Shown here in pieces: positions 4,101 through 58,986 of a stretch of 64,000 bases of DNA (position 1 is its first letter; the number at the start of each line of letters is the position of its first letter). The notes beneath the pieces are model-generated. The model was given only the letters and a program-made list of their open reading frames with translations, was not told the DNA's origin and made no database searches. This stretch comes from Tubulanus polymorphus (taxonomy: Eukaryota > Animalia > Nemertea), in NCBI RefSeq assembly GCF_964204645.1, contig NC_134027.1:15098485-15162484 (forward strand). Reading direction: 5' to 3'. The position numbers were made by a program, and so were the translations under genes.

Positions 4101-4193
4101 AGTAATTAGAAAAGTGGGGTTTCATACCAGAGGACGAGAGGACGAGACACCACTCATCACCACAAGTAATTTTTTTTCCTAATAAATGGGAGA
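4101..4193 (+). repeat. Polinton left TIR
   Basis: Reverse complement of 20353-20445 at 92 of 93 positions; includes the ATG of the adjacent gene. Confidence 0.97.
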
Positions 4194-4512
4194 TAGAAAA
4201 GCATTCTTAGCAACAATAAATAACAGAATAAAACCAGCAAAAAAACAATTTGAAATAAAAAAGTTAGTTGATGTTACAAAAGAAATTGAACATAAAATAT
4301 TGAAATTAGAAAAGATAAAAACTAAATATGGAGAGAAAGTATCAGCTAATTTAAGCTACTGTAATGTTAGTACATCGCGAGAATTTAAAGTGTTTTTACC
4401 CGATAAATGGGTTTCATTGAGTACGGAGGAATTGAAAGATTTAGTAGGATTTAAAATAATATATCATGGGAAAAATGAAGACGGTCATCATGATTTAGAA
4501 ATTGTTGATTAA
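4186..4512 (+). CDS. Small conserved Polinton protein, possibly an OB-fold ssDNA-binding protein
   Basis: Intact 108-aa ORF with TAAATG start; homologue at 32984-33325 (TKYG/TNRYG, LPD, GKNExGHHD). The OB-fold call is inference. Confidence 0.7.
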   Translation: MGDRKAFLATINNRIKPAKKQFEIKKLVDVTKEIEHKILKLEKIKTKYGEKVSANLSYCNVSTSREFKVFLPDKWVSLSTEELKDLVGFKIIYHGKNEDGHHDLEIVD

Positions 4513-4650
4513 ATTTTAAAAAAAATAAATTAATAAAAATAATGAATATCTAGAATCCGAAATGACTTACCTGGACAATTTAATTGCTCCACATAGATAG
4601 ACAAAAGTAGTGAGATATTCAATTATTTTTTTTGCTTTTTTTCTAAAATA

Positions 4651-5019
4651 TTAATCCATTTTTTTTATTATCAATTTTGGAATTTCAGAAGTACTTTCAT
4701 TTTTGATAGCAGTTGGTTCAGAATTACTAATATCATGAATTTTATTTGATTTCTTATACCAATTACACCCAATCAAAATGAATACAATTACAAATCCAAC
4801 TGTAAAATATAGATATTTATCAAATATTCTACTATCAGAAGGAGTAGAAATAACAATATTTTCACCATTTTTATTAACATTTTTATTACTTATTTTTTCT
4901 TTTACAGCTTTTTTATATTCTTGTGATTTAATTCCTAATTGTCGAGACCATTCAATTTGTTTCTGAGTTCTCGGTTTTTTCTTCACAGTTAATTCCTTCA
5001 CTTCTTTCACTTCGCTCAT
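4651..5019 (-). CDS. Polinton protein, basic N-terminus and one TM helix
   Basis: 122 aa; hydrophobic YLYFTVGFVIVFILIGC; TAAATG start. Confidence 0.7.
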   Translation of the reverse strand: MSEVKEVKELTVKKKPRTQKQIEWSRQLGIKSQEYKKAVKEKISNKNVNKNGENIVISTPSDSRIFDKYLYFTVGFVIVFILIGCNWYKKSNKIHDISNSEPTAIKNESTSEIPKLIIKKMD

Positions 5020-5557
5020 TTATTATAGAAATATTTTTACTTTCAATATTTGAAAATGTTATAACCCCGGTTGATAATAATGTCATAAATCCTCCTAATT
5101 GAAATGATAAATATCCAATCCATTTATTTAATTCAGTCATAACTAAATAATCATTTTTTAAATCGGAATATAATCTATTTTCATCTTCAATTGGTAGTAT
5201 ATAATTACATAATTTACTATAACCTTTTACTACATTTTCTGATATCGCGTCATTAATTTTAGCTGTTCTCGCGGCTTCATAAATCTTAAATAATCTAATA
5301 ATTTCATCTGATTTCATTGTATCTAATTCATTATAAGTTAAATTTTTACCGACAAAATTTTTACATTTTCCAGATGCTATTAATATTTCTAATTGATGTT
5401 TACAATAAAGATAATATTCATAATTATTATTTGTTGTTACATTATTTAAAGCACCATCATCTGGAGTTAATTTTGTTTCTGTTATTCCTAAATCATCTAA
5501 AGTTTTTTCAATTGGAACATCACCATTTTTAGATTTTATTTTCTTTTCACCTCCCAT
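4952..5557 (-). CDS. Polinton hypothetical protein with a hydrophobic C-terminal segment
   Basis: 201 aa; TAAATG start; WIGYLSFQLGGFMTLLSTGVITF. Confidence 0.7.
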   Translation of the reverse strand: MGGEKKIKSKNGDVPIEKTLDDLGITETKLTPDDGALNNVTTNNNYEYYLYCKHQLEILIASGKCKNFVGKNLTYNELDTMKSDEIIRLFKIYEAARTAKINDAISENVVKGYSKLCNYILPIEDENRLYSDLKNDYLVMTELNKWIGYLSFQLGGFMTLLSTGVITFSNIESKNISIINERSERSEGINCEEKTENSETN

Positions 5558-5574
5558 TTATAAAACAAATAAAT

Positions 5575-5850
5575 TAGTTGTGTTGTTGCAACTAGAATTC
5601 AACTAGAATGTAACTAGAATTCAACTAGATTAACAAGCTTGTTGAAATATTGTTGTTTTTGTTTATTTCTTGTTAAATGTAGTTGATTTTTGTTCCAACT
5701 ACTAACAACTAGAATTCAACTAGAATGTAACTAGAATTAAACTAGATTAACAAGCTAGTTAAAATATTGTTAAATCTATTTGATTTTTGTTACAACTACT
5801 AATAACTAGAATTCAACTAGAATTCAACTAGATTAACAAACTAATTGAAT
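5575..5850. repeat. Intergenic array of 11-bp AACTAGAAT(TC/GT) units in three blocks
   Basis: Blocks start near 5590, 5707 and 5804; each ends AACTAGATTAACAA. Confidence 0.85.
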
Positions 5851-6459
5851 TTAAATAAATTCATATTTAAATGGGTGTTGTAATCTAAATAGTAATTTTG
5901 ATCTTTTAATATTTTTCAACTTATCCATATATTCATTATGTAAATCATGTGGAATAATATCATTTTCCTCAAGTGCATTTTTCATTGATTTTCTATCTTT
6001 ATTGTAGAATAAAACTAGAAATCTAATGTTTTCTCTAAAGTCTTTAACAATTGAATTATATTTTCGATTTAAAACCCAAGTTGTTATCCCAAAATGTCTC
6101 CCAGAGAAAGCTAAATAGCATAACTCACTTTCTCTAACTTTTGAATCATGTAGATTAGCACAATCATCTATAATGAATAATGTATTTGATCCTTTATAAA
6201 TATCAATTGCTATTTTAATACAATTATCTAAATTTTCTTTTACTGTTTTAGGATCAAATATAATAAATTTCTTATTCCTAGTAATATTTCTATCATAAGT
6301 TTGATTAAATTCATATGTTGGACAAAATAATACTATATTATCAAAATAGTTTTCATAAACAGTTTCTAATAAATTTAATATAAAATAAGTTTTTCCACAA
6401 TTTGTTACACCAGAAATTAACATATTATGAGGCTCAAATATGAATAATTCCTTATTCAT
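5851..6459 (-). CDS. A32/FtsK-like genome packaging ATPase
   Basis: Walker A GVTNCGKT, Walker B LFIIDD, downstream SGRH motif, FRENIR. Confidence 0.92.
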   Translation of the reverse strand: MNKELFIFEPHNMLISGVTNCGKTYFILNLLETVYENYFDNIVLFCPTYEFNQTYDRNITRNKKFIIFDPKTVKENLDNCIKIAIDIYKGSNTLFIIDDCANLHDSKVRESELCYLAFSGRHFGITTWVLNRKYNSIVKDFRENIRFLVLFYNKDRKSMKNALEENDIIPHDLHNEYMDKLKNIKRSKLLFRLQHPFKYEFI

Positions 6460-7587
6460 TTATATATTTTTAATTTTACTTGATAATATCCATTCATTAA
6501 ATTTATCTGGCCATCCAACCCATTTTACTAAAGAATATTTTTTTCTTTTAATAGTTTTTGTTTTTAATACTTTTTCAATTTTATATTCTTGTTCTAGATT
6601 TTCAGTAGTTAAACTTAATTCTTCTTCGTAAAAGTAGCCATCAACTTCTTCACCATCTAAATCTTCTAATTGATAGACATATGGTTTTGTTGTTATTACC
6701 TTTTTTATTTTATATATTTCCCTAGTAAAATTTCGATCGTATCCTTTGTCAAATATCTTTTTATACTTAGATATTCTAACATTTTGGCCAACTTTAAATT
6801 TAGGTTCACCAAAATCATCTACAAGAAATGCTCCATATAAATTATTCCAAACAATTTCAGCATTTTCAGATTTTCTAGCATCAATAGGTTTCATTCCAAT
6901 AGAAGAATGATAAGAATTATTATATCCTTCTATCAATTTTGGTAAAACATCAATCCATTTAAAAGTATTATTTGCTGTAAAATATTTCCACATTCTTGTT
7001 CTTAATGTTCTATTAAATCGTTCAACAACTGCTGCTTTTTTATCTGATTTTGTTGAAAAATATTTAATATTATGATTATCTAAGAGTTCATGAACAAGTG
7101 AATTATCAAACTCTTTTCCATCATCAAATTGTATTTTTTCTGGATTTAGTTTATCATCCGAAAGAAATTTTCTTAAAACATTTGATGTTTGTACAGCATC
7201 TTTTCTATAAAGTGGGAAACTCCATACATAACGACTAAAAATATCAATTATATTCAATAACCACCAATAATCATCATTATCTTTCTTAACATTTTTCATA
7301 TCAATTAAATCTCCTTGCCACTGTTGATCTACATAACTTACCATAGTTTTACGAGTTTTATATTTTCTAACAATTTTTTTATGTGTTGTATATGTTGGTT
7401 GTTCTAACATAAATTCATTTATATCTTTATATTTAACTAAATTTTGTGGGATTATCTTATCTAATTTATCTTGTTTTACTTTACGCCATATATTTTTAGT
7501 AGAAGAATAAGCAACCGAACTCTCAGGGTTGTAATATAAATTTCTTAAATATTGTTCTTTAGTATTAGGAGTTTTTTTACCACTCAT
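6460..7587 (-). CDS. Retroviral-like (rve) integrase with C-terminal chromodomain
   Basis: WQGDLIDM, IDIFSRY, QFDDGKEF, KAAVVERFNRTL (DDE triad); EYKIEKVL...LVKWVGWPDKFNEWI chromodomain. Confidence 0.95.
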   Translation of the reverse strand: MSGKKTPNTKEQYLRNLYYNPESSVAYSSTKNIWRKVKQDKLDKIIPQNLVKYKDINEFMLEQPTYTTHKKIVRKYKTRKTMVSYVDQQWQGDLIDMKNVKKDNDDYWWLLNIIDIFSRYVWSFPLYRKDAVQTSNVLRKFLSDDKLNPEKIQFDDGKEFDNSLVHELLDNHNIKYFSTKSDKKAAVVERFNRTLRTRMWKYFTANNTFKWIDVLPKLIEGYNNSYHSSIGMKPIDARKSENAEIVWNNLYGAFLVDDFGEPKFKVGQNVRISKYKKIFDKGYDRNFTREIYKIKKVITTKPYVYQLEDLDGEEVDGYFYEEELSLTTENLEQEYKIEKVLKTKTIKRKKYSLVKWVGWPDKFNEWILSSKIKNI

Positions 7588-7617
7588 TTATATATCCTTA
7601 ATTTTAACTTTATATTT

Positions 7618-8865
7618 CTAATATTGAATACTATCTAATTGTGAATTTACAATATTTAATTGCACGTCAGATATAATATAAATGTGCATTTTAAAATTTT
7701 TGATTCCTTTATTCTTTGTCATGAATAATTGTATTCCATCTTTAGTGTTCTGTAGTTTTTTTCCAAAACCATGTAATGAATTATCTTCTGTTGTTCTAAA
7801 ATCTAACCATAATCCATATTTATTACCGGTATAATAATCAATTTGATTAATATTACAATTTTCAAATGATTTTACTTTTTCATTCATAAAATGTTTTCTA
7901 ATTTCTGACCATTGATGAATCATTCTCATTCCTTGACAAAATATTTTATTCGCTATTCCTTCGATAGTTATTTCTACTTTTGTTATTTCAGGATTATAAT
8001 AATTATCAACATTTATTGCACCATTAGAATATGTTGCAATAGTAAAAAATATTAATATACCTTTAATAGATCTTCTAGGAAAGTTAATATTCTCATTAAT
8101 TATTTCATCATTTGCATTAATAGTTACAGTTTTAAATTTATCAATATAATCATATAATAATGAAAATCCTTGATTGTATTGAGTTTGAATTGTGCTAGCA
8201 ATATTTTCATTAGTTACTGTGTTATATTCTAAACATATATTCGATAATTTATAACCCATATCTTTAACAACGCTAGATAATACAATTTCATTTACAGGAG
8301 CAAATGTTATCTCAAATATAATATCTTCTTGAATTGCGTATTTATATAAAGGTGCATTATTATTTATCAATTCAAAGTCTAATGGAATTTTATATTTGCT
8401 TCCATAAATCTTTTTAATCAAATTATCTACGCCATTATTTACTACTGCGTTATTGGCTTCAGATCTTAATTTATTTTGGTTTTCTGATTGAATTCCTTGA
8501 AATATCATATTATTTCTATTTTCTTTAGTTAACCATAAATCTTTATAATGTGAAAATAAATTATAATCATCTAATGAGAAAACTGTTTCCGGACCAATCT
8601 TTATTGTTAATTTTTTAATCAAATATCTTCCAACATTATCAACAACATAATTATTATTATTACCGATTACTTTTATATCAGCTGATAAATAAATACTATT
8701 TGGAACATAAAAAGTATTTTGTGTTAATCTAGGAATTCTAACATATAAAGTTTCATCGGGATTAATATTTGAAGGGTTATGAGTAATTATATGATGTGAT
8801 CTTTCTGCTTTAATAGCATTAGATATTCTATGATTCTTCGAAGGACTTATATAACTCCCACTCAT
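7618..8865 (-). CDS. Probable major capsid protein (double jelly-roll)
   Basis: 415-aa beta-rich ORF (NPSNINPDETLYVRIPRL...LSNICLEY...GLWLDFR); size and position fit a Polinton MCP. Fold not verified. Confidence 0.75.
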   Translation of the reverse strand: MSGSYISPSKNHRISNAIKAERSHHIITHNPSNINPDETLYVRIPRLTQNTFYVPNSIYLSADIKVIGNNNNYVVDNVGRYLIKKLTIKIGPETVFSLDDYNLFSHYKDLWLTKENRNNMIFQGIQSENQNKLRSEANNAVVNNGVDNLIKKIYGSKYKIPLDFELINNNAPLYKYAIQEDIIFEITFAPVNEIVLSSVVKDMGYKLSNICLEYNTVTNENIASTIQTQYNQGFSLLYDYIDKFKTVTINANDEIINENINFPRRSIKGILIFFTIATYSNGAINVDNYYNPEITKVEITIEGIANKIFCQGMRMIHQWSEIRKHFMNEKVKSFENCNINQIDYYTGNKYGLWLDFRTTEDNSLHGFGKKLQNTKDGIQLFMTKNKGIKNFKMHIYIISDVQLNIVNSQLDSIQY

Positions 8866-8885
8866 TTATTTAACAAAAAAATTAA

Positions 8886-10271
8886 TTATTTATTTTTTGA
8901 TATCATATTTACTAAACCAAAAATAATAGCACTTACAACTGTAATTAAAAATAAAATAATATGTTCAGCAGCAAAGTTAATAATGTTTCCTGCAGATTTC
9001 AATATAAAACCAACAATTGAAGCAATAACTCCTGGCAATGCTGCAGCAGATTTTTTAGATAGTTCCCATAAATATTTTGCTAATTTCTTTAAACCATCTT
9101 TAACTTTATCTTGTATAGAATTATTGCCTGGAGGTTTATCTGGTTTATTGGGAGTGGGAGTAGGAGGAGTAGATTTTAAAGCATTTGATATAGCTAAACC
9201 AATTGTTGTAAATAACATAGTTACAGCTGTTAGAATTGAGAGAATTGTTATTCCTTCTAATTTAAATAATAACTTCATCCTGTCTTTTAATGATATTTCA
9301 GAATTTGGTTTAATCAACAAATCTTTAAAAATAACTTTTAATCTATTAATATTATAATCATATGATTTTAACAATAATTTAATTTCTTCTTTTTGTAATT
9401 CTATGTTATATTCTAAATCATCTTTTTCTTTTTCTAAACGTAATTCTTTTTGCCTATATTCTATTTCATCAATTACTTGATGATCTAAATCAGACTTTAA
9501 TTGTTCTATTTCTTTATTTTTATCAGTTAATTCTTTTTCTAAAGTTCTAATTTTAAAATCTCTTATACTTTTATTATGTGCAATTTTATCAGATGCAAGT
9601 CTTATACTAATAATTTCTCTAATTGCTTTATCAGAAAATATATCTAAATCTTCTAATTCTTGATCTGTTGCATCAAGTAATCCATTCGGTAAAAGTTTTT
9701 CAATTGGAACTTTATTTGATTTAAGTTTACTATTTTTGGAAGTTATATTCTGTTCAGAAGTTGTTTCTGTTTCTGATTTCTTTTTGATTATTTCAAATAA
9801 TTCATTAATTCTTTGTTTAAATACATCTATATTATCATCTATTTCTTTTTGTGTAACATCAGTTATTTCATTACTATTACTTATTATTTTAATTCTATCT
9901 GGTTTTAATTTTTCTAAAGTTGATTCTGATAATATTTTATTTTTATTATTTTTATAAGTGATATCAATATAATAATCACCTTTCAAACGATAATAACATT
10001 TACCATTATCTAAAAATTTTAATTGATCTTCTAATTTAGGTATTTTTTTTAAATTATCTAAATCTTGTTTTACTAAATCTGGGTCTAAATTTTCAGGATT
10101 TAATTGTGATTCAGCATTTTTAATATAATCAGGCATATTTAAATTATTGTTATATTCTGATTCATTACCATCATTAAAACTTGTTTCATCAAAATCAGGT
10201 GGTTGTTCATCAGTTATGTTAGGTTCATCAAAAGGATCCATTCCAATATCTTCTCCACCTTCTACATCCAT
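8886..10271 (-). CDS. Coiled-coil protein with a hydrophobic/amphipathic C-terminus (candidate membrane-penetration protein)
   Basis: Acidic N-terminus, long heptad region, GITILSILTAVTMLFTTIGLAI, Pro-rich linker, AAALPGVIASIVGFIL, C-terminal TM. Confidence 0.75.
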   Translation of the reverse strand: MDVEGGEDIGMDPFDEPNITDEQPPDFDETSFNDGNESEYNNNLNMPDYIKNAESQLNPENLDPDLVKQDLDNLKKIPKLEDQLKFLDNGKCYYRLKGDYYIDITYKNNKNKILSESTLEKLKPDRIKIISNSNEITDVTQKEIDDNIDVFKQRINELFEIIKKKSETETTSEQNITSKNSKLKSNKVPIEKLLPNGLLDATDQELEDLDIFSDKAIREIISIRLASDKIAHNKSIRDFKIRTLEKELTDKNKEIEQLKSDLDHQVIDEIEYRQKELRLEKEKDDLEYNIELQKEEIKLLLKSYDYNINRLKVIFKDLLIKPNSEISLKDRMKLLFKLEGITILSILTAVTMLFTTIGLAISNALKSTPPTPTPNKPDKPPGNNSIQDKVKDGLKKLAKYLWELSKKSAAALPGVIASIVGFILKSAGNIINFAAEHIILFLITVVSAIIFGLVNMISKNK

Positions 10272-10287
10272 TTATATAATAAAAAAA

Positions 10288-11607
10288 TTAAAATTTAAAA
10301 TATAATATTCCTCCTATAACAATTCCTATACAAGTTATAGCTAATTTAGTATTTTCATGGGATTTATTATCATCATTTAGTTTAATTATATCATGTTGAA
10401 TTTTATCAGTTTTTATATCTTCTGATGTATTGTAATCTTTTATTTTAGAATCATTATTTAATTTAATATTATTAGTTTTAGTTTCTGTTGATTGAATATG
10501 TTTTTTATTTTTTTCACCTTCCATTAATTTTGGAGCAGTAATAATCTTTTTATTTATATCATTCAATCCAAATGAATTATTTATTGTTGCAGTTTTAATT
10601 AGATTATTATAACCAATTATATTTCCCATCTTTAATACTAAATCATTAGAAATAATTAATAGATTAGGGCCTATACAATAATCAAGTCTTACATGAGATT
10701 TATCTAAATAATTTTGATATCTTATAATGTTTTCTGGAATCGATCTATTTTTATCATCATGTATGGAATCTTCAAATAATACTTTAAATTGTTTTTGTGT
10801 ATCGAATGATGTATTCAAATTTCCAATTATCGGTGATCTTGTTTCAACTTGCGCACCTAGAATACAAATCAAATAAATTCTAATAGATTGATTTATTCTT
10901 TCTATACCTGATTTAGTAAAACCTTCACTATTTTCTAAAATAAAATAAACCCAACCATTATTGTTTTCTTGTTTTAAATTATCATAAAATTTTGGTAATT
11001 TATTGAAATTTAATGTTTCTTAATCCTTTGTTTCTATTTTACCATAACCTAATTTTTTATTATAGATATTATAAAAACTATTAGATGGTATGGGAAGTGC
11101 ACAATATTCTGCAATCTTTCTAGGGCATGGAAGTGATCTTATTGTTCCAATTTTTGTTCTAAAATCAGAATTATTTATATCTATATTAAATTCATTGCAA
11201 ATCTTATAAAACTTAGATAAATTAATATTATTATCTAATTCTTTGAAATACCTAGATCCTGGTAAAGCGCACTCCAATTCATTTAATATTATTCTGATTT
11301 GAAAGTATGTATGAAATCTAAATAAACTTTGAATTAATTTATATTTAGAATTATTCAAATGATCATTCCAACTAATTCCACATCCTGTTGTTGCACAATA
11401 AACAGCAAAATTTAATTGATTCTGCCAATACTTCATATTAGATTTTAATAACCATTGTTTTTCATCTTTCAATTTTTTAAAATTAATTAAATATACATGA
11501 AATATATTTTCCATCTTTGCATTAAAATTATTAGTTTCAGTAACATAAATTTCTAAATTAGTTAATGAATCTAAAACTTCATTTCTATATGTAATATGTA
11601 TATACAT
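10288..11607 (-). pseudogene. Polinton protein (~440 codons) with a C-terminal TM anchor; one in-frame TAA at 11020-11022
   Basis: ORFs 11020-11607 and 10288-10872 share a frame and the gap is open (GWVYFILENSEGFTKSGIERINQSIR); WQNQLNFAVYCATTGCG motif. Confidence 0.75.
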
Positions 11608-11623
11608 TTATATAATTAAAAAA

Positions 11624-12058
11624 TTAATAATTTATTAATTCTTTTAATAATTTATCTTGTTCTTCAACTGTTATATGGCCATTTAAACTTATTATATAAT
11701 CTAGTGTGTTCTTTAATTTATTAATTTCTTTTATATTAGATTTTATTTTTTCTTTATTACTTTTTATATTTAATTTTGAACTTATACCAGTTAAAACACT
11801 TGAACTTAATCCTAATACACCAATTGATATAGCTAAAGGTGTTAATGGGCTGAATATTGCTAGAAATGTTATTACAGAACTAATTGTAACCGAACCACTT
11901 ATAATCAAATAATATATAATTTTACTTTTTAAATATTTTTTCTTTTTTATCTTTAAGTCACTTTCAAATTCTAATATTTGTTTTTCTAAATATGTTTTTA
12001 ATTTAGTTTTATTTATATCATGAGGAATAATATCAATACTATCAACTTTATCCTCCAT
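11624..12058 (-). CDS. Two-TM hairpin protein flanked by basic coiled segments
   Basis: IIYYLIISGSVTISSVITFLAIF and LAISIGVLGLSSSVLTGI; TAAATG start. Confidence 0.72.
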   Translation of the reverse strand: MEDKVDSIDIIPHDINKTKLKTYLEKQILEFESDLKIKKKKYLKSKIIYYLIISGSVTISSVITFLAIFSPLTPLAISIGVLGLSSSVLTGISSKLNIKSNKEKIKSNIKEINKLKNTLDYIISLNGHITVEEQDKLLKELINY

Positions 12059-12077
12059 TTATTTAGAATAAAAATTA

Positions 12078-12500
12078 CTAATTAGTAAATTTATAAGCAA
12101 CAAATATAACAATAACTGTTCCACCTAAAATCCATATTATTTCATATTTCTGTTGTTCTTTACTTGGGGTATAATAATCTGATAATTTAGGTTTGTATAG
12201 ATGTAATTTTTCTTTATTTGTTACTGCGTTATATAAACTCATTGCATCATCAACTGATTGAAAATCTCTATGTGAAATCTTCTGATCATATAATTCTTTA
12301 TTGATGTAATCCATATAGTTTTGTCTCTTTTCTCTATATTCTTCTGCAGCTTTATTGTATTTCTCTAACGCTAAGTTATGTCTTCTTTGTTCTCCTAATG
12401 AACTATTTTTATCAATATGTTTAAATAAATAACCACCACCAGTAAATGCTAAAGCGTTAACAATTGCTGATCCTATAATAGTTATAATTGCAGAAGCCAT
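12078..12500 (-). CDS. Small protein with N- and C-terminal hydrophobic helices
   Basis: MASAIITIIGSAIVNALAFTGGGYLF ... IIWILGGTVIVIFVAY; TAAATG start. Confidence 0.75.
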   Translation of the reverse strand: MASAIITIIGSAIVNALAFTGGGYLFKHIDKNSSLGEQRRHNLALEKYNKAAEEYREKRQNYMDYINKELYDQKISHRDFQSVDDAMSLYNAVTNKEKLHLYKPKLSDYYTPSKEQQKYEIIWILGGTVIVIFVAYKFTN

Positions 12501-12524
12501 TTATTTAGCAAAAAAATTATGCAT

Positions 12525-12746
12525 TTATATGGGAGGAATATATTTTTGTTTTTCCAAATAATCAATTGTTAAATTAGATAAAGTAACTGCTAATGTTAAC
12601 TTTAAAATATCATTTATATCAAATCTATCAACATTAACACTTCCCATTTTGAATACTTTTTTTAATACCATTGAATAACCAACCGTTCCAACTGATAGTA
12701 ATGCGCCATTATATAATCCAGTTATTATCCACTTATTATCACTCAT
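12525..12746 (-). CDS. 73-aa hydrophobic Polinton protein
   Basis: TAAATG start abutting the upstream stop; two hydrophobic stretches. Confidence 0.65.
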   Translation of the reverse strand: MSDNKWIITGLYNGALLSVGTVGYSMVLKKVFKMGSVNVDRFDINDILKLTLAVTLSNLTIDYLEKQKYIPPI

Positions 12747-13106
12747 TTATTTATCAAAAAAATTACTATCTTCAAAATATTTAGTTAACTTATTTATGAT
12801 TAATTCAACATTTATTTTATTACTAGTTTTATGATTATCATATATTTTGGATAATATGTTTTTAATATCATCGATGATAAAATCTTCATCTAATTCATAA
12901 AATCTTAAAGATTCTCTAATTAAATTAGTAATCTTTTCTACATTTAAAGTTTCTTTATCTATTGTTGTTTCATACTCAAATGTTGTTTCATTAGAAAATG
13001 CAATATTTTTGATATGTGTTATTACATCATTAATGTTAAATTTCATTTCTTTCTCACGTTTAAAATCAAATCCAAAACATATACTCGGTCCAACCGTTAT
13101 ATTCAT
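12747..13106 (-). CDS. Polinton hypothetical protein
   Basis: 119 aa; TAAATG start; tightly packed in the gene array. Confidence 0.6.
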   Translation of the reverse strand: MNITVGPSICFGFDFKREKEMKFNINDVITHIKNIAFSNETTFEYETTIDKETLNVEKITNLIRESLRFYELDEDFIIDDIKNILSKIYDNHKTSNKINVELIINKLTKYFEDSNFFDK

Positions 13107-13122
13107 TTATATAGGTGAAAAA

Positions 13123-13926
13123 TTACTCTTTACATCTTATAACTAATTCATAAATTACAGGAAAGTTATTCAAATCAATTAAATAACCATTATGATTTCT
13201 TATTTCTAATTTAAAATTATTGAAATGTGGAATACAAGGTTTAAAATCACATTCAGCTAAATTATAATTTATTTGCGTTCCAAATTGTTTAACATTCTTC
13301 AATGGTAAAATGTTTAATATACTAGAATTACATGTTGTATCTTTAGTTGCTTCGAATGTTTTTGTAGGATCGATTAAATTGCAATAAATATAAAAGTGTG
13401 TAAAAGGTATTATATTTGAGTTACCGTGTTTGTTTCCACCAAATTGATTTGGAGTAATTCCTAATAGTTTAGCTATAGGTTTTTTTACCGTGTAAGTATG
13501 TCTTCTTGACATCAATACACTATTATCAAGTTTATCAAGTTTAATAAGTTCATCATCAAACTTTATTTTAATTTTATTAGAGCTCTCACTTTTTATGAAT
13601 TTAATATTAAATTTAGAATTACCATTACCTAATCTAATCCGAGCTTTTCTATTAATTTCTTGCTCTAATGTTTCTAAATCATATAATCCTGGTGTAAGCA
13701 TAAGTTGAATCCATTTTTTTTCAAGTTTATCAAAAATAAGAAGGCTTCTATGTTCATCAGTTTTATCCGATATATTGTAAAAAGAATTACATAAACTTAT
13801 ATTTACTAATTTTAAATCTACACAATTCTTAAATTCTCTATCTAATTGTACTAATAAATTATGTGATTTATAATTTGTAAGTCTTCTAGAATCAACAAAT
13901 ATTCTATATTCTTTTAATTCTACCAT
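13123..13926 (-). CDS. Probable minor capsid (penton) protein
   Basis: IFVDS, NSFYNIS, PGLY, AKLLG, IYCNLID, ILNILP, IRNHNGYLIDLNNFPV: the pattern of Polinton single jelly-roll pentons. Confidence 0.78.
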   Translation of the reverse strand: MVELKEYRIFVDSRRLTNYKSHNLLVQLDREFKNCVDLKLVNISLCNSFYNISDKTDEHRSLLIFDKLEKKWIQLMLTPGLYDLETLEQEINRKARIRLGNGNSKFNIKFIKSESSNKIKIKFDDELIKLDKLDNSVLMSRRHTYTVKKPIAKLLGITPNQFGGNKHGNSNIIPFTHFYIYCNLIDPTKTFEATKDTTCNSSILNILPLKNVKQFGTQINYNLAECDFKPCIPHFNNFKLEIRNHNGYLIDLNNFPVIYELVIRCKE

Positions 13927-13994
13927 TATTTATAACATAAAAAAATTACCGCTCATCACTAAAAATTAATTTTAATAAAATTTTTCCTAAATAA

Positions 13995-15291
13995 ATGGAT
14001 GAGAAGATAGCATGTGAAATTTGTGGTGAACTTCTAAGAAAAAGTAATAAGGCTCGACATATGAAAAAACATGATGAAAATTATAAACCCCCTAAAATAA
14101 ACTGCCCAAAATGTAATAAATTATTCTCAAGAAATTATGTTAAAAAACATTCAGAGAAGTGTAGAATTAATGGCGCAACGGCTAATGTTGATAGTAATTC
14201 TGCTGAAGTTGAACCTGAAGTTATTTGGAAAAGACCTTTCTTATTCTATGATAAGGATAATATAAAAGATCATTTCTGTGAGCCTTGTCGAATAAAATAT
14301 AACCCTGAAAATATAGAAGATTGGGAGAATCATCAATTTCGTAAAGTACATATAGATAAAATTTCTAATAAATTTGAAAATGAATTTAATGAAAGAAAAG
14401 ATAATTTATTAGAAAAAATATGAGAAAACATTACCAGATAATGAAGAAACAGTTGAAAAGTTAGAAAAACAATATAATGAATTAACAAGAAAAACATATT
14501 ATTGTAAATATTGTAAATTGATTATTACAACAAGTAATTCAAATCTACATAATAGAACAATAAAACATAAAGAAAACGTAAGAAAATACCAAGAGCTTAA
14601 TGAAGATCTATTACCAAGCTATGATAGAAAAAAATGCCCACAATGTATTTATGAGTACTTAAGACAAGAAGGTCCTGTGATATTTTGTAATGAATGTGGA
14701 TGGCAAAAGAATTTATTAGGTGAAGAAAAAACTAGAGATTTTCTCATAGATCCAAAATTAAATTATCTTGATGAAATTTTTAAAATATTTTCTATAGAAG
14801 ATCATACACCAGAATATATGCAATGGCTTGAAAAAATGAAAATAATAGAAAATGAAAATGGTGAAATAACTAAAAAAGATATTATAAAAACAATTATTCC
14901 ATCAACATTTAACACAAAACAAAAGAAAATGTATTTATATTTATTATTTAACGATTATTATGAAAAACCTAAATTAACAGAAGAAGATATGAAAAATATA
15001 AAAAAAATATTCAAACAAATATTAATGTATCATTTGGAAAATAGAATAACAGATTCAATAAATTATGAATTCTTTTTAAATAAGATTGTAAATTATTTAA
15101 ACCTAGATATTATAATTCCATTTGATGAATTAACAAACAAGAAGAAACAAAGAGAGCGAGATGAAATGTGGAACAAGATAGAACTTTATTTAAATGAGAA
15201 AAATGGAATGGAAGAAGAACCTGAACAATTAAATGAAAATGAAGAAGCCAATAATGATTTCGAGTTTGATGATATTGATTTTATGTTTTAA
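13995..15291 (+). pseudogene. Multi-C2H2 zinc-finger protein fused to a zinc ribbon and a VLTF3-like domain; one frameshift in an A-run near 14415
   Basis: CEIC..H..H, CPKC..H..C, CEPC..H..H and CKYC..H..H fingers; CPQC...CNECG ribbon; C-terminal SINYEFFLNKI...KKQRERDEMWNKI. The two ORFs join by removing one A. Confidence 0.65.
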
Positions 15292-18200
15292 TGGCCATAA
15301 GGTAATGTTTTTATACCATCATCTAAAATATGCCTTTTATCATCAAATGGATTTAAACTAGTTTTTTCAACTTCATTAATGTACATCTCATGATCTTCTG
15401 ATCTTAAACAATTCATTTTGTGTTTCATTACAATTGATTTATATAAACACTTTATATAATCTTGAAATTCTATATGTTTATCAACCACATGTTTTGTTAT
15501 TCCTTTTAACTTTTTAGCTTCATGATCTTTTGTTCTGTAACTATACATTTTACTTCTTATCCCAACAAATTCAATCATTTCATCACCTCCTAATTCATCT
15601 TTAAATTTACCAGGAATCTTTTTATTATCATTGCTAAATAGTTTATGATCTTTGGGATAATTGCTAAAATCAAAATGATGTTTTAATGTTTTTAAGTCTT
15701 TTGTTATGTCATTTGTCTTGATTTTTAGTATGTAACTGTCGGTATTTTTTGGATTAATGGGAACCCAGAATTGAATGTTCCATCATCTGTTGATAAATCA
15801 TAAACATAGTCAGTTGGGTTATATATTTCAAATAAATCTTTAACTTCTTCTGTTAATTCTTTTTCTACATGCCTTAAATTAAAACAATTTGGTTTAGATT
15901 TAATTAATTCTATATTCATATTAAATCCTAATGAACTGCATAATATATTCAATCCTGATATAGCAACTTTTCCTTTTTGAGCAAAGGATATTGTTTTGCG
16001 GTTTTGGAACCTTTTTGAACCATCTGCGGCATAGAATCCAATGAAGAACCACTTTCTTAAATTATTTTTTGCATTCAATACATAATCTGGAACTATCTTT
16101 TCTTTAGTTGAAGTATTACTTTTCACTATTGCATGAATATAGAATTCATCATTATATTTTGTAGCAAAATCTTTAGGATTATTTACAAATATTCTATAAA
16201 CCGCGGATGATTTCATATGATCCATGATTCTAAATGTTTTATATGAATAAACTGTTTCACAGAATTTCTTAATTCTTTCTAATAATTTTAAGTCTTGATT
16301 GCATAAAATACCAACAATATTTATTACCCCAAACATAATTATACACACCTGCTGAACCATCACCCATGAAAAATCCTTTGATAAAATATTCTTTTTCTTC
16401 CAATGTTTCGGGTTCTATATTATAAATATTATCAATTATTTCATCAAATGACATATGATTCATTCTTGGGAAAAATCTTTTATGTAATAATTCATCTCCA
16501 ATTTTTATATCAGTTGGTTTTATTTCATCACCATTTCGTTTAATTAAACTATGATCTTCTGTAACATCTACAAATCCTAATTTAGTTCTAACTCTATAGA
16601 TTTTCTTATTTGTTTTATGTCTAATAATATTCTTTAATTTTTTCCATCCATTTCTTGTCCAAACATCTATTAAACCATTTATTTGTATTAATTCTTTTTC
16701 ACCATATGAAATATAAAGTTCATTTTGTTTTGGAATTATTTCTGAAATTCTTCTTATTAATATTTGGTTATTGTATTTTAATAATATTGGGGTGTCAGCT
16801 GTTACAGAATCAAAATATAATATTTCAATATGCTTTCCCCCAAAAAGTGGTTGCAAAACATTATAATAAAAATCATACATTAATAATTTTGATATTTCTA
16901 AAACAGTTGAACCTGTAAATATTGGTTTATTAAATTTCATGGACGTTCTTTTTAATTTTACCGCGGTTAAATAATCTTCAAACCTTTTATTTCCTAAATG
17001 TCTAGGACTTGATTGTAAATGTCTTAATCTTTCAGAATTATTTACTAATTCAATATCATTTCTATTTCTAATATTTTCACATGTTTTTCCATAAAAACTA
17101 TTGTTCATCAATTTGAAAAAATCTTTTTCAAAATCTGTTTTTGATATTGTTCTCTGTTGAGTATTGAAATCTATATATTTTTCTAACCACTTCGATTGAT
17201 TAAATTCAATATATCTATGTACTTTCTTTAATTTCATTCCTTGTTTTAGATAAAATTTTAACATTCTATAATGAACAATATAATTGTATTTATGATTTTG
17301 AGTAAGTATTAATTTTTCTGTAAAAACATGATCTTTCGGTTTTATTTTCTTCTGGTATTTACTTAAATAACTATCATCTACAGTTAAATGTTCTGGGCAA
17401 TAAGGTAAGTTTCTTGTTTTAAACTATATATTTTCAGAATATTCTAAATCAACTACAAAGAAATAACCAATTGGTGCTTCATCTTTTAAACTCACAATTG
17501 CGCTTTCCCAATCAGTTTTATCACCATTTTCAACTTCTGTTAATATAAAATTTTTATGTGGTTGAGGTTGCATCATTGCCCAACCATATAAATTATTGGC
17601 GTCAATATATAATAATTTATATTCATCATTTGCTTTAAAATACCTATCTCCCATAACACCACTAATTCCACCTCTAATTGATTTTTCAAATAATAAAACC
17701 ATATCTGGTTCTTTTAATAAATCTAATTCTACATTTGTATATTTTAAACCACATTGCCAGGTTAAACCAGGACTAGAGTAGCAATAACAAGGATCAACAT
17801 TAAAATGATTCAAATTAACTTCTCTAAATTTTTCAAATATGTCAGCCAATATCATAACATCTGATTTTAAATATAAATCAACTAATTCACCATGATTTTT
17901 CATCTTAAAATGGTCCCAAATATTTAATGTTCTATTAAAAACTTCGTCTTTCACATACTCCTCTTTTAATTGATCATAAAATTGATCTTTTAATAATTCT
18001 ATTACATTAAAATCATCATGTGTTTTATAAAATGAATAAGGAATTGCGCCTTTATATCTCAATAATTTAAAATCTTGTTCATTTGGATAATAATATCGAG
18101 TTATAACAAAATCATTATCAACTAAACTTTTTGATAAATTATCTAATGAACTTGCTAGAAATCTATAAGAATCTAAAAATCTAATGCAACCAAATTGAAA

Positions 18201-20360
18201 TGAAATATAATTTTCAGATGTTTTAGCTAATAGTTTAAAATCATATTTTCTTACATTTACACCATTCATAGCATTATATTCTTCTATTTCTTGATTAATT
18301 GTACCCAATTTCTTTGATAATTGTTTTATAAATAGATGGGTATCATAACCCGATAAATTATGAAATAATATTGGTACGAAATTAACTTTCTTAGCTTGTA
18401 AATTGCAATCTTCATGAGCAGCTCCACGATATTTTGAATTTAAATGATCATGATCTCTAACTTTTTTATCAAATGAATAAAAACGTTTTTCACAATAACA
18501 ACAATGAGTTGCATAATTAAAATCAATTTCATCTTCTTTTGTCATAACTATTCTTTTATTTTTGTTTAATAATTTTACAAAATCACTTTCTAATTCAATC
18601 ATTTTATCACAAAAATCATTAACTACATTTTCACCTCTAAAAGAAATATATTGACTTTCATATAATTCGGGATAATTTGATTTTATATAAATTCCATAAG
18701 CAGCAGCTCTTTGATGAACTTTTTTAATTGTATTTATAATTGGTGGGTCTTGAATTGTGTCTTCATTTAATTCATTTCCTTTGTCCATTGATTTTAATAA
18801 TTGCTTTTTGTTATATATTTCTTTTCTATCTTGATCAGTTAATTCTTTATTCAACGATTCAAAATCCCCATAAATTACAAATGGAACAATATTCTTAAAT
18901 TTATGATTAGTAAATTTCAATTTATAATCTTTTTCTGTTGGCGTTATTAATTTACAAAAATCTTTATTATCACATAATTCTTTATGTTTTAATAATGTAT
19001 TCTCAGTCATAAATTTAGATAAACATTTTCTACATAGATAAATTTTACGATGATGATCACTTTCTGTTGTTCTAAAGAATAAATCAATTTGTTTTAACCA
19101 CATATAATGTTCATTTTCATCTTTTTTGTAATATAACAAATCTATAGCATTTTCATCATCATAATATTCTGTTAAATATAAAGCTTCCAATGTATAATCT
19201 TTAATATTTTCACCTTTTGTCTTTGGTAATTGCATTAATTCGAATACATTTATTTTTAAATTATTAACTTTTTCTATTTTAGGAATCATTTTTATAGTTA
19301 CTGGATATTGATCAATTTTATATAATGTTTCATATTATCGGTAATTTGTTATTCTAAAACTATGCGTCATATCTTCTGTTTGGTGTAAACAACTAATAAT
19401 TGACCATAGAAAACATTTATTATCTTCATTTTGAACATTTATTACTGCTTTTGTTGTAAATGGTAATTTAATATAAGATGATGCTTTAATATCCTTTTCT
19501 GTTGTAAAGTTTGAATCATTTTTAAACATTTTATTACTTTTTGATGTTTTATTCCTTTTTGTATTATAAACATTTAAATCTAAATATATAATTTCATTCA
19601 ATGTTAAGCCAGAACCCTCAAAATATCTTTCTTCAATATGACGTTTAAATTCATTAAATATTTTTTCTAACTTCTCTTTTATTTGTGTTTTTGAAATTAT
19701 TTCTTCAGAGTGTGTTTGAATATTATAATTCATTTTTTCTTCTGACTTTATAAAACTTACTTTCCCAGAGATACTAATTTTTGGATATTCAACATCTGTT
19801 ATCAAATCTAGTATTTTTTCTATTATTTCATTAAATTTACTATAATCTTCTATTGTTGTACCTTTAAAGAATCTAAATATAATAGCTGCAGGTCCAATTT
19901 TACTATGTAATGTTTCTAAGATTTCAATTGTATCTTTTATTTCTAGTGAATCAATATAATTTCTAACATTTTCCATGTAAGGTTTATTTGAAATGGATTT
20001 AGTTTTTGAAGTTGATTTTTTTACTTTTTGAGGTTTATCATCAAAATAATCTTTTCCTAAAACATTATTACTCAAATTTTGCTGGTGTTTTTGTGATTCG
20101 AGATGTCTATTATAATTCCTTTTTACTATAAATTCATTACAAACTTCACATTTTATTTCATCCACATTCATATTTTCTAATCGTTCTTTTCTTTCATTGG
20201 AATTTTCTGGAGTTTCAAAATCTATTACATTTTTTATATGATTTGCAGTTTTTTCATGTCGTGTTTTATTAGATGTATCGATGTATTTTTTACAATATTG
20301 GCAATAATATTGATTTTTATTAACATTATTATTTTCTGGCTGGTGTTCATTCTCTCCCAT
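15288..20360 (-). pseudogene. polB: Protein-primed family B DNA polymerase (~1690 codons including intein); in-frame stops at 19335 and 17424, two indels inside the intein
   Basis: ExoI VIYGDFES, ExoII FHNLSGYD, ExoIII YLKSDV, motif A YIDANNLYG, motif B KLMNNSFYGK, motif C YFD|TDS, GKFKDE, IRSKMY, FDDKR. Confidence 0.96.
15744..16808 (-). mobile_element. Intein with LAGLIDADG homing endonuclease inserted in PolB motif C (1065 bp, ~355 aa)
   Basis: Block A SVTADTPI, block B VDVTEDHSL, LAGLIDADG blocks FIKGFFMGDGS and FFIGFYAADGS, block F YVYDLST, C-terminal KN followed by extein TDS. Confidence 0.93.
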
Positions 20361-20445
20361 TTATTAGGGAAAAAAATTACTTGTGGTGATGAGTGGTGTC
20401 TCGTCCTCTCGTCCTCTGGTATGAAACCCCACTTTTCTAATTACT
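20353..20445 (-). repeat. Polinton right TIR
   Basis: Reverse complement of 4101-4193; includes the pPolB ATG at 20360. Confidence 0.97.
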
Positions 20446-23400
20446 TACCGATATTCGATGGTAATTTACTCAATTGGCAAACATTCATAGATTTGTTTAA
20501 TACCTCCGTCCATAATCAGCATATCTATCAGATGTTGAGAAATTCACGCATTTAAAATGTTATTTGTCGGGAGAGGCTAAGTCAGCTATCGAAGGGTTAT
20601 CTCTAACCACAGCAAACTACGGTATCGCTAGACAACTCATAGAGGAGCGTTTTGGGCAGTCTTATAAGATTGCAGACGCGCATTTGCAAGTTCTAGCGAA
20701 TTTGGAAAATCCAACTCCTGAGTTGAAATCGCTTCGTAAATTTCACGATAAGATCGAAATAAATATTAGAGCTCTGAGTTCTTTAGGCCGTCAGCCTGAA
20801 ACTTATGGCGCCTTACTCGTACCGGTCATCATTTCGAAATTACCACAGATCGTCAAACTGAATATTTCGCGCAACTATGGCAATTGTGAGTGGGTTTTGG
20901 ATGAATTGCGTGCCTCTATACTTAGTGAAATTCATATTTTAGAATCTTGTGGAAGTTCGTTTTCTTCGCCAGCGCATGTCAGTACCGGTAACGAGTTCGT
21001 GAAAACAACCGAAGATTTTGTTACGCTTCACACTCGACAGTTCGCGTCCGGTGGTCATTCGCGCCCTGCAAGAAAGTGCTTGTTTTGCCAATCCGATAGG
21101 CATAACGCAACGGAGTGTGATATTATCACATCCAGAGATCCTCGTCTTAGCATTATCGGAAACTTGCGTTTGTGTTTCAATTGCCTTGGGAAACACAAGG
21201 CAAGCGACTGCACTTCGAAGTCGCGGTGTAGAGCCTGCAAAAAGAAGCACCATTCTAGTCTTTGTGGTGCGACCTTCACACGTCGAAAAGTCAACGTTGT
21301 AGTCAACACCGGTCAACATAATGCGGGAATTGCGCTCAATTCGGCACGTTCGAGTTCCGTCAGCGACGCCGTCGTCGCTGAATCGACCGATAATTCAACC
21401 GAGAATTCATATTCTAAAACAAATGAGATCAGCACTCGCGCGCTTGCTGTCAAAAGCCTCTATTCGAGAGTCACAACAGAACACACTACAGTTCTTTTGA
21501 AAACTGCTATGGCTTCTATAGATCATAACAGCAATAGATTTTCACTATTTTTATTGTTAGACGATGGTTCACAGCGTACTTTTGTAACGCAAAGTTTGAT
21601 TGACGAATTAGGTATTAAACCTCATAGAAACGAGACCATAAACTTAGCCTGTTTGGGGCCACAACTCCTAGCAGTCGCGAGTTAGACTGTGTTTCTTTAG
21701 ATATTAATTGTAATAACGGTCAACTTTCTATTGAGGCATTGGTAGTTCCAACCATTACGCAACCGTTATCTATTCCATGCAGGGCTATAGCCAATATTCC
21801 TGAATTCAAAACGTTACAACTAGCTCGTCCGTTGTATGAAGATAACGTTCAGATTGTTAGTGTATCTCTCTTAATTGGATCAGACTACTATTACAATTTT
21901 GTTAATTCCGATCTACCAACGATCAAGTCTAAAAGTGGTCCTATAGCAGTACCTACGTCATTAGGTTACATAATTACAGATCCCATGTATCAGAGAAATT
22001 GTATCAGTAATCAAACAACACCAATCTTGCATGTTCTTGCTGAAGCTGATACCTTGGACTTAAAAACTATTGGTCGTTAGAAAACATTGGTGTTGAGTCT
22101 CCTATCGCTGATTCAAAATCATCTTTTTGGAAGAATATTTTGCGAATTCCATTTCCAAGATAGTATAGGGATTTATTATGCCAGACTTCCGTGGAAAGTT
22201 AACCACGGTCCCTTGCCTAGCAATTACGGGATAGCAATGTGTAGAACTAGAAGTTTAGTGTGTAGACTAGGGCACACACCAAATTTACTAGAGAAATATC
22301 ACGGAATTATAAAATACCAATTGGAAAGGGAATTCATAGAAAAAGTACCCGAACCATACATGATCAGTGGAAAAGAGCATTATATTCCACATCACGCCGT
22401 CTTTAGACAGTCGGCTACGACCCCAATTCGTATCGTATTTGACTGTAGCTGCCGGCAGTCTAAAGATTCGCTTAGTTTGAACGATTGTCTGGAGTCGGGT
22501 CCAGCACTGTTGAACGATATAAGTTCTATTATCATGAGATTCCGCCTGTTCAAATACGGGGTTATAACCGATATAGAAAATGCGTTTTTACATGTCGGTC
22601 TACATCCTGATGATCGCGATGTAACCCGGTTCTTTTGGTTAATTGACCCCACGAACCAAGATAGAGCATTCGACGTCTATAGGTTTAAAAGAGTATTATT
22701 TGGTGCATCGTGCTCCCCTTTTATGCTAAACAGCACACTACTTTTTCATTTGACTCGCACTGATGGGTTATTTTTTTATCAGATAGCACGTGATTGTTAC
22801 ATGGATAATGTAGTTACAAGTCTCAACAATGAGCCAGATTTAGCATTATTTTACGAATCGTGCAGATCTCTAAAAGCCGATGCTAATTTTAACTTCAGAA
22901 GTTGGACTTCTAATTCTCAGGTACTTAAACAATTAGCTACGTGCGACGAGATTTGTGACGATTCTAAACTCGTTAAGGTCTTAGGGTTGATATGGAACCC
23001 CGAATCTGATACTCTGAGTTTTCCTGACCGTCGTATTTCGTATGAAACGTCATATCTTGCAAAGGTCAGCTTCAATTTTTGATCCCCTTGGCATTATTTC
23101 ACCGATTAAGGTTCGTTCAAAAATATTGTTGCAAAACTATGGAAAAATAATTTCGAATGGGATGAAAACCTCTCATCTGATCTTTGTAAGGTATGGGAAT
23201 CAATAACCAAAGATCTAAACATAGCATTAGAAATGAAGTTTTCTCGCATGTTTTTACAAGGCGACTGGGCAAATATCTTATTTCAACCGGAGTTGCATGT
23301 TTTTACTGACGCAAGCATCCAAGCTTACGGTGCTTCAGCTTATTTAGTAAGCGGGTCTGAAACTGCTTTCGTAATGGCCAAATCTCGCGTTGCGCCCGTT

Positions 23401-25426
23401 AGAGAACTTACTATACCAAAACTTGGATTGTTAGCGGCGACTATTGGCGCGAGATTAGCGAGCCATATTAAGTCGTCTATCGAAGCGGCAATTCATCGGC
23501 CCGTCAAATTGAATATGTGGTCGGATAGCCAAATCGTTTTGGGTTGGCTTAGGTCCAGTGATAAGAAATCCATTTTTATCAAGAATCGTTGTGAAGAAAT
23601 TAGACATTTAACTGGGATAGAGTCGTGGACGTTTTGTCCGTCGTTGGATAATCCAGCGGATCTTTTGACCAGAGGGATATCTCTTCCAAACTCAAAATTT
23701 GGTGATTTATGGCTTAAGGGTCCTTCTTGGTTACGCGATAGTTCGAAGACACCAGATCAACCCGATATTATTTTGACATCCGCCGATAGTGTGAACTTAG
23801 ATTTCGTACGACACACTAATTACACGGAATCTTTCAATGAAATAGACATAACTACATATTCATCTCTGTCGAATTTACTGAATGTTACCGCTTACGCTCT
23901 GAAATTTGTAAACAATCTAAAATCTAGAAAGGATGACCGTTTGTTAGGTAGTTTAACTCCATCGGAAATTGAGTCCGCTGAATCGTTTTGGATTAGAGAT
24001 GCCCAAAGGAAGTTCTTTTCTGACGTTCTAGCTAATTTGAAAACACCTCATAAGAGAATGCAGATTATAACTCAGTTACAATTATTTCTTGATTCAAAAG
24101 GCATTATTAGGTGTAAAGGGCGAGTCCAGAATTCAGACTTGGACTATGAAAGTAAACGTCCCGTTCTGATTCCTAAGAATTCGAATCTTGCTCGTTTGAT
24201 CGTAAAACAGGCTCATTTCAGTGTACACCATTTTGGTGTTAGTTATACAGTAGCTAAAATCCGCGAAAGATTCTGGATTCCTCAAATACACCTCTACGTA
24301 AAATCATGTATTCGTGGATGTATTGTATGTAAGAGAATCGGTGGTCGGTCTTTTAAACTACCTAGCCCTCCACCATTACCATCGTGTAGAGTGCTAGAAA
24401 GTCCACCTTTCTACGTATGTGGTTTGGATAACTGTGGTCCATTCATTATCAATGATGGTACAAAGTGTTATATTTGTCTTTTTACGTGCACAGTGACCCG
24501 AGCGGTACATTTAGAATTGGTACCCTCTAACTCATCAGACGATTTTCTTCGTGCATTCAGACGATTTTGTGCGAGACGCTCCCTGCCAAGGAGACTTATC
24601 TCTGACAACGGTTCAACCTTTATTGGAGCTAATAATGACTTAAAACGCATTTTCAAATCACTGCACGTGAGCGACTTTATGTCTAGAAAGAGAGTCGATT
24701 GGCAGTTTATCACCAAGAGGGCTCCTTGGCAGGGAGGTTTTTGGGAACGTCTTATTGGTTTGACCAAGTCAGCTCTAAAAAAGATTCTAGGTCTTACTTC
24801 GGTTTCATTTCTTGAGTTTTCTACGATAATTACAGAAGTAGAGTGTATGTTAAACGACAGACCATTAACGTATGTTTCGTCAAATTTTACTGACGGCGAG
24901 GCTTTGACTCCATCACATTTGTGGTGCGGGAGGCGTCTGTCGTCGCTACCCCTCCTTTAGACGACAGTAAAGACCCAGAATACTTACCGAGTATTGATCC
25001 TTTGAAACGAGTATGTTTCAAAGTTGTTAGAGCATTTTTGGTCAAGGTGGAAAAAAGAATACTTGACAAACTTGAGAAACACACAATTATATTGGACATG
25101 ATAATCAAAGCGAATTTCTGAAGCCTGGTTCAATTGTGATTATTCAAGATGAAGGTCCGAGATTAAACTGGAAGTTAGGATTGATAATTGATAATGTATA
25201 TGGGAGCGACGGTCTGATAAGGTCATGTAATCTGAAAACACAATACGGTGTAACGAATAGACCTGTAAACAAATTATGTCCATTAGAAATAGTCGCTTCA
25301 ACTACTCCTGCTGTAGAAGATCATTCTAATGACGGACCCTCGGATGTAACTAATAAAACTAAGCGAAATGCCGCGATAGAGGCAAGACGCAAAATAGAAA
25401 ATTTATGTAAAACAGTGTTGTATTAA
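20446..25426 (+). pseudogene. pol: BEL gag-pol (gag zinc knuckles, aspartic protease, RT, RNase H, integrase) with several frameshifts and stops
   Basis: CLFC..H...C, CFNCLGKH...C, CRACKKKHHSSLC; LLDDGSQRTF; YIPHHAV, RIVFDCS, DIENAF, YMDN; LHVFTDAS; GLDNCGP, SDNGSTF, APWQGGFWERL. Confidence 0.93.
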
Positions 25427-25468
25427 TTTATGCCTATGGATATGAATTTGTTTATTTGGTGGCGGGAG

Positions 25469-25682
25469 TGTCACGACGTACCTACGTGAATTGTATTGAT
25501 CGTTCGCCTATTGGTTCATTTGAATTTGGCGCTATTCTTTGTACTGAAATCCTATATATATGTGTTAAGTCCTGTAATAAAGGTTCGCTTCATATTGGAA
25601 AACCAGTCGAGTTTATCTCTGCTTTCGAGTCGTTTTGGGTCGTCAATGTCGACATTTTAGGATTCTGTCTTTCGTCTGGACA
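25469..25682 (+). repeat. BEL 3' LTR (214 bp)
   Basis: TGTCA...GGACA termini, preceded by a PPT, contains AATAAA. Confidence 0.88.
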
Positions 25683-32947: not shown

Positions 32948-32983
32948 TTTAATATCAATTTTTAAAAAAAAATTGATTTTATA

Positions 32984-58951: not shown

Positions 58952-58986
58952 TGCTATTAATTTATTCATTCTAAAAAGGCAAATAA

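Follow-up and report, generated by a model that had tools for sequence, protein, structure and literature searches.

Among described systems, the closest to the locus reported here is the intein of the Mimivirus DNA polymerase B (PolB), located in R322 (residues 1053-1403, site III) according to Ogata et al. (2005, PMC549080). Polintons/adintoviruses, whose PolB falls into Alpha and Beta classes (Starrett et al. 2021, PMC8502044), encode protein-primed polymerases (pPolBs), and inserts with HNH and VSR nuclease domains have been described in the pPolBs of Polintons (Jeong et al. 2023, PMC10748475; Krupovic et al. 2024, PMC11161782). Krupovic et al. devote one speculative sentence to the origin of such inserts from intein invasions; in the main text of Jeong et al., the words intein, Hint and LAGLIDADG are absent. 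Nuclear inteins have been reported from fungi and protists, including Anaeramoeba, as have virus-derived inteins in the DNA polymerases of algae (PMC5784728, PMC10710043), and metazoan genomes were described as free of inteins by Green et al. (PMC5784728). The literature searched, mostly by title and with supplements, Repbase, InBase and subscription journals outside its scope, yielded no description of a Polinton polymerase with a Hint intein and, within the same scope, none of a protein-primed polymerase of any kind that contains a splicing intein.

In the window, i.e. the whole 64-kb stretch of DNA that was analysed, motif C of a pPolB is split by a 1065-bp insert exactly between YxD and TDS (Table 1). 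On the minus strand, the N-extein ends in HIEILYFD at 16809 and the C-extein restarts with TDSYILKI at 15743, so the borders given for the insert in a preliminary description, made from the sequence alone, were right. The same description had read from the sequence an initial Ser1, a TEDH block B, two LAGLIDADG motifs, a VYDLST block F, a terminal Lys-Asn and a +1 Thr in the C-extein, all of which were located. Its proposal of a Hint/LAGLIDADG identity was borne out by profile searches: the N-terminal piece of the insert matches TIGR01445 with 36.6 bits against a cut-off of 24.5 (E 6.9e-09), and PF14528 scores above its cut-off in four homologues (P0001, P0006, P0140 and P0149). In the broken pieces of the window insert, the Pfam matches are weak and below cut-off (PF14890 and PF14528, E 0.0011 each). 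On these sequence features, the insert is confirmed, beyond chance, as a Hint intein with a two-motif LAGLIDADG domain.

Intein block F usually contains a His, and a penultimate His is common, although not universal. The window intein has no His in block F, and its penultimate residue is Lys, not His. A penultimate Lys is also present in the Mimivirus intein, Lys-Asn ends 125 of the 229 extracted YGD-site inteins, and a penultimate His occurs in the inteins of P0007, P0140, P0149 and P0150. The frame of the window intein is broken twice, near 16305 and near 15750, both as previously indicated, and the polymerase frame is also cut by two in-frame stops (Table 1) that were absent from the preliminary description. 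Given two frame breaks and two upstream stops, the window copy would be unable to yield a spliced enzyme; judged by its reading frame, this copy of the intein is dead and can neither splice nor home.

Table 1. Features of the intein-bearing Polinton and its surroundings (positions within the window)
Feature	Position	Strand	Remarks
Whole Polinton	4101..20445		16,345 bp; ends AGTAATT...; ~23% G+C
6-bp target site duplication	4095..4100 (left); 20446-20451 (right)	plus (left)	perfect copies
Left terminal inverted repeat match	4100..4193	plus	94 bp; takes in one target-duplication base
Right terminal inverted repeat match	20353..20446	minus	98.9% to left one
A32-type packaging ATPase	5851..6459	minus	PF04665, E 9.2e-13
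rve integrase, weak chromodomain match	6460..7587	minus	PF00665, E 4.1e-10
Likely double jelly-roll major capsid protein	7618..8865	minus	feature score 0.97-0.98 to viral clusters
C-extein, protein-primed PolB	15288..15743	minus	begins with +1 Thr
Intein coding sequence (Hint splicing domain and internal LAGLIDADG endonuclease)	15744..16808	minus	1065 bp
Block F VYDLST	15788..15805	minus	motif position
LAGLIDADG motif 2	16016..16051	minus	acidic residue kept
LAGLIDADG motif 1	16353..16388	minus	acidic residue kept
Block B TEDH	16551..16562	minus	motif position
N-extein, protein-primed PolB	16809..20360	minus	PF03175, E 5.4e-14; stops 19335-19337, 17424-17426
BEL/Pao retrotransposon, right part	20452..25682	plus	DUF1759, Peptidase_A17, rve, DUF5641

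The host element is an integrated Polinton, as had been proposed, and it bears terminal inverted repeats (TIRs), a 6-bp target duplication, a pPolB, an rve integrase and a packaging ATPase. An HNH/EndoVII-like insert is also present in the N-extein, elsewhere than the intein. The likely capsid protein has no Pfam match; some of the viral clusters that it matched carry capsid families on 10-24% of their members, and its recognition value lies below the tool's line. No protease family that could represent a maturation protease was detected among the 20 ORFs scanned in the window. Two zinc-finger-like ORFs (13995-15291, plus strand) lie inside the Polinton and converge on the polymerase end. In addition, the window contains two further Polinton fragments (1265-2082 and 29757-32983), one 89% identical and with a TIR and the polymerase start, the other 72-73% identical; both end before motif C and are uninformative on the intein.

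The Polinton interrupts the gag of a BEL/Pao retrotransposon, whose LTRs are likely represented by two direct repeats of 128 bp (3592-3719 and 25555-25682). Between 3125 and 26879 the insertions are nested: the BEL/Pao element, into which the Polinton has inserted, appears in turn to divide a Gypsy-like pol that runs over 3125-3697 and continues from 25661. The other flanks in the window contain Gypsy-like, THAP and DDE_Tnp_4 sequences and a non-LTR element that has both an endonuclease and an RT. The regions 53288-62593, 27414-28025 and 39712-41491 hold several copies, in either orientation, of a repeated element built internally of tandem units of 153-154 bp, as well as a tandem array of 112 bp and short arrays rich in AT. 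BEL/Pao elements are largely metazoan. Since no host gene was found within the 64-kb window, the animal host is read from these flanking elements, on which the intein-bearing Polinton very likely sits in animal nuclear DNA. A carrier chromosome belonging instead to a protist or symbiont host appears highly unlikely. The lack of a host gene in the window and the derivation of the intein homologues from metagenome assemblies would suit such a carrier, but the BEL/Pao, Gypsy-like, non-LTR, THAP and DDE_Tnp_4 flanks argue against it, as do a named coral match within the polymerase class (P0500) and whole-genome shotgun (WGS) reads of one species label that lie hundreds deep over the stretch.

Independent reads provide a further view of the site. 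Four of 12 listed runs were mapped to positions 14500-19500, and one of these, X7, consists of raw WGS reads with the same species label from another study. X7 covers all 30 bins of this interval, with a mean depth of 206 in five bins inside the intein and 370 in five flanking bins; the resulting ratio of 0.56 is only approximate, since reads from diverged relatives are placed more easily on the exteins. Among the rows listed, at least 17 raw X7 reads skip the intein and join 15735 to 16809, encoding the same T-D-S with four of eight letters different, and a second empty form of the site is present in an X1 contig. Filled and empty alleles, which the preliminary description had proposed to look for, were thus both found in X7 reads, and they also occur in the P0140 cluster described below. 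Most lesions are largely private to the window copy: at the first frame break, about 168 of 215 reads have another length, and 271 of 274 and 230 of 234 reads differ at the in-frame stops. At the second frame break, by contrast, only 33 of 158 reads differ (among the rows listed). A run with another organism label (X6) gave a weak match, a 201-base contig inside the intein with 12 differences and a depth of 3.

These data also bear on whether the locus is an assembly chimera of Polinton and giant-virus DNA, a concern raised earlier that independent raw reads and contigs largely refute. The frame breaks in the window copy could be taken as signs of such an artefact, and no single contig among the mapped runs spans the whole stretch. 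Against this, contigs of two runs, X1 and X3, cross the N-terminal intein junction (16606-16871 and 16775-16958), the raw reads of the other study fill every bin, and the perfect target duplication and matching TIRs lie inside a host retrotransposon. The G+C and GC3 of the intein agree with those of the exteins, and the identical arrangement is seen in unrelated assemblies, leaving a chimera with a practically negligible probability.

The best matches of the window intein are inteins of other Polinton polymerases. The intein of P0001, an uninterrupted metagenomic Polinton polymerase of 1693 aa, is 63% identical to the window insert (215/340); open polymerase-plus-intein frames are found in P0001, P0006, P0140, P0149 and P0150, and P0007, P0464 and P0535 carry an intein at the same motif C site. 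Besides that of the window, at least five Polinton polymerase lineages contain uninterrupted same-site homologues, and in one of these the extein is only about 21% identical. The single entry into one genome that had been envisaged gives way to a clade distributed over several Polinton lineages. Each of the six Polinton homologues checked retains TEDH and the acidic residue of either LAGLIDADG motif, and the extracted inteins measure 337-354 aa, with no mini-intein among them. A structure model of P0009, a natural homologue with 47% identity, has a pLDDT of 91.5 and displays a Hint fold with a nested endonuclease; its best matches are the TliVMA, PI-PfuI and PI-SceI inteins and I-DmoI (E 1.6e-18 to 1e-9), and a sequence search of the PDB returned weak matches (E 0.003-0.08).

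The distribution of the family beyond these polymerases was surveyed with several queries. Of the best 120 of 1242 homologues of the P0001 intein, 114 belong to PF00136 polymerases, that of Mimivirus among them; the others reside in pPolBs (five) and a topoisomerase II (one). With the P0001 extein as query, 116 of the best 120 homologues listed have no intein and four have one; the closest intein-free exteins (P0427, P0429 and P0430, 72-74% identical to the window) read HIEIMYFD-TDSYILK without interruption. Of 165 loci among the listed matches to the intein query, 127 match a polymerase, all 127 best to the RNA-primed type, so that none of these loci displays the genomic surroundings of a further Polinton with an intein. 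A scan of viral contigs with P0001 gave 57 pattern matches, none of which was a relative. Contigs L098-L104, binned in bacterial and archaeal metagenome-assembled genomes, encode inteins 33-50% identical to the query and may represent misbinned large-virus DNA. Related inteins are also present at a DQD-TDG site in viral-type topoisomerase II proteins (P0003, P0037, P0049, P0053 and others), of which P0003 appears to hold three inteins. Their occurrence at this D-TDG site shows that the intein family can change its host protein where sites look alike.

Possible traces of homing come from the P0140 cluster, which comprises 136 members on contigs of up to about 1 Mb. Among the 15 members listed, seven are filled, six are empty and two are uninformative, and filled and empty members are 94-99% identical. 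In a comparison of 13 of the 136 members, conducted at the protein level only, all 10 of the fixed differences between filled and empty members in 1191 columns fall between -7 and +44 residues of the site, and the filled flank resembles another lineage (P0535 upstream, P0059 downstream). This clustering, like the letter differences at the empty sites of the X7 reads, would fit co-conversion, resistant empty alleles or both, and ordinary recombination would fit too. At motif C, the six empty members (among P0379-P0386, a family 97-99% identical) read YFD-TDA, YTD-CDS or YGD-TDA, and these differing sequences could possibly constitute a set of endonuclease-resistant alleles.

Over longer distances, P0006 differs from the other Polintons in a telling manner: its extein is 20-22% identical to theirs and its intein 44-50%, a far greater likeness of the intein, which suggests that it has passed from one polymerase class to the other. 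PF03175 matches the window polymerase weakly (52 bits) and P0006 strongly (111 bits), and these scores would place the former in the Beta class and the latter in the Alpha class of Starrett et al. On an extein tree of 47 of the 128 exteins, the filled state takes eight changes, seven of them forced by starred branches and no fewer than in shuffles, where such counts are blind to gain versus loss. The scatter of the intein over distant Polinton lineages is plain from these comparisons, and it suggests that the intein has moved between them. Of the homing among Polinton copies proposed in the preliminary description, the flank differences may retain traces in relatives; the window copy itself is too broken to take part. 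It could instead be supposed that the intein splices without homing, its patchiness reflecting old inheritance, repeated loss and recombination between Polinton families. Polymerase swaps between Polinton lineages are known (PMC10748475), which would suit this explanation, as would change counts that cannot separate gain from loss. It nevertheless seems unlikely in view of the acidic LAGLIDADG residues retained in the window as well as in the six homologues, the uniformly full length of the extracted inteins, the excess of intein over extein identity between classes, and the concentration of fixed differences at the site only.

The origin of the family was approached with two intein trees, a FastTree reconstruction of 72 rows (from 240 after dereplication) and a quick IQ-TREE mixture tree of 47 rows (the 72 minus 27, plus two archaeal). 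Polinton inteins form one clade in both (support 98/100 and 99, respectively), and in both free trees this clade lies inside the RNA-primed motif C inteins, among which is that of Mimivirus (89 and 93), support around its parent being 84-94. The nearest rows outside the clade (P0021, P0261 and P0368) are all PF00136 polymerases, and the RNA-primed PolB rows are linked to giant viruses only via Mimivirus and GVMAG contig names. The atlas match score to the giant-virus PolB intein family is 0.87, and archaeal inteins are more distant, with 27-43% identity over partial matches. A C-terminal GFPL motif was considered as a Polinton signature and dropped, as it also ends 20 RNA-primed PolB inteins; these form a separate clade that is not the sister of the Polinton clade.

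From this evidence, Polinton inteins probably descend from a giant-virus-type polymerase intein. An approximately unbiased (AU) test did not reject a sister relationship between the Polinton inteins and the entire set of remaining viral rows (p 0.55), the constrained sister tree being 3.3 log units better than the free tree. It is therefore the abundance and diversity of the family, not the tree, that speak for a giant-virus origin. The comparison of intein and extein trees suggested earlier hence upheld one intein clade scattered on the extein tree, but not the direction from giant virus to Polinton, and co-infection, the route put forward in the preliminary description, stays a conjecture. 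An older source common to Polintons and giant viruses, or a flow outward from Polintons, would agree with the AU result, the very long outgroup branch and the fact that all RNA-primed PolB inteins are at most about 49% identical to any Polinton intein. Such a history of a real intein spreading among Polintons is nonetheless rather unlikely, because the free trees nest the clade among RNA-primed motif C inteins, the family is commoner and more diverse in RNA-primed PolBs (114 of the best 120 listed) and rare in Polintons (4 of the best 120 polymerase matches listed), and the archaeal inteins are farther away.

The residues and the fold predict class 1 splicing, in which an acyl shift at Ser1 would be aided by the TEDH histidine, the +1 Thr would attack, and the last Asn would cyclise, bringing the catalytic aspartates of motif C back together. 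As the intein splits a catalytic motif, the element should replicate only if the intein splices. The freed endonuclease would then cut motif C in an intein-free Polinton copy within that cell; with a filled copy as template, repair would convert the cut site and carry flanking sequence along. Multi-copy Polinton families would offer targets of this kind, and a single-copy animal gene none. The least certain step is the first jump, from the RNA-primed PolB of a large DNA virus to a protein-primed PolB, which could have been possible because the D-TD(S) active-site sequence is common to both. The whole chain, namely splicing and homing by unbroken relatives, a single transfer from a large DNA virus to Polintons and later crossings between lineages, is considered likely on the sequence evidence. 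A bolder form of it, to which we give somewhat better than even chances, holds that a homing intein clade taken once from a giant virus circulates in animal Polintons of both polymerase classes, is inherited through the germline in tens to hundreds of copies, and races against empty alleles with changed active-site codons. If so, inteins would not be absent from animal genomes, and animal Polintons and large DNA viruses would once have been present together in one cell compartment.

The locus matters in several respects. It places an intein in the inherited nuclear DNA of a likely animal, albeit in a viral gene rather than a host gene, and it offers a test of why animals lack inteins, namely that homing works where empty targets are many, as in a multi-copy virus family. 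The intein may also serve as a marker, at the sequence level, that animal Polintons and large DNA viruses have met in the past, which bears on whether animal Polintons depend on such viruses, and as a mark of gene flow between distant Polinton lineages.

Compared with known systems, the element resembles the Polintons/adintoviruses of Starrett et al. (PMC8502044) in its TIRs, 6-bp duplication, pPolB, integrase, ATPase and likely capsid; an intein goes unmentioned in the text of that article, whereas here one intein clade occurs in both polymerase classes. The HNH and VSR inserts described by Jeong et al. and Krupovic et al. are likewise nuclease domains within Polinton polymerases, but they are bare domains, whereas the window insert comprises a full splicing domain and interrupts a catalytic motif. 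Fungal and protist nuclear inteins share the setting in eukaryotic nuclear DNA and the proposal of Nucleocytoviricota as carriers; they are known from unicellular eukaryotes, fungi and algae, and the word Polinton appears in the text of neither PMC5784728 nor PMC10710043. The intein of Chilo iridescent virus (PMC549080) is also virus-made in animal cells; unlike the window intein, it ends in Gln and belongs to a free iridovirus, neither integrated nor inherited. The closest likeness is to the Mimivirus PolB intein (PMC549080), which occupies the identical motif C site, as the preliminary description had recognized, and shares Ser1, TEDH, the LAGLIDADG domain, the Lys-Asn end and the +1 Thr; it has 351 residues against about 355 in the window, with 42% identity. 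There, the host enzyme belongs to a free giant virus that infects amoebae and is RNA-primed and Pol-delta-like, whereas here the host is the protein-primed PolB of an integrating element: a known intein family in a new kind of host enzyme.
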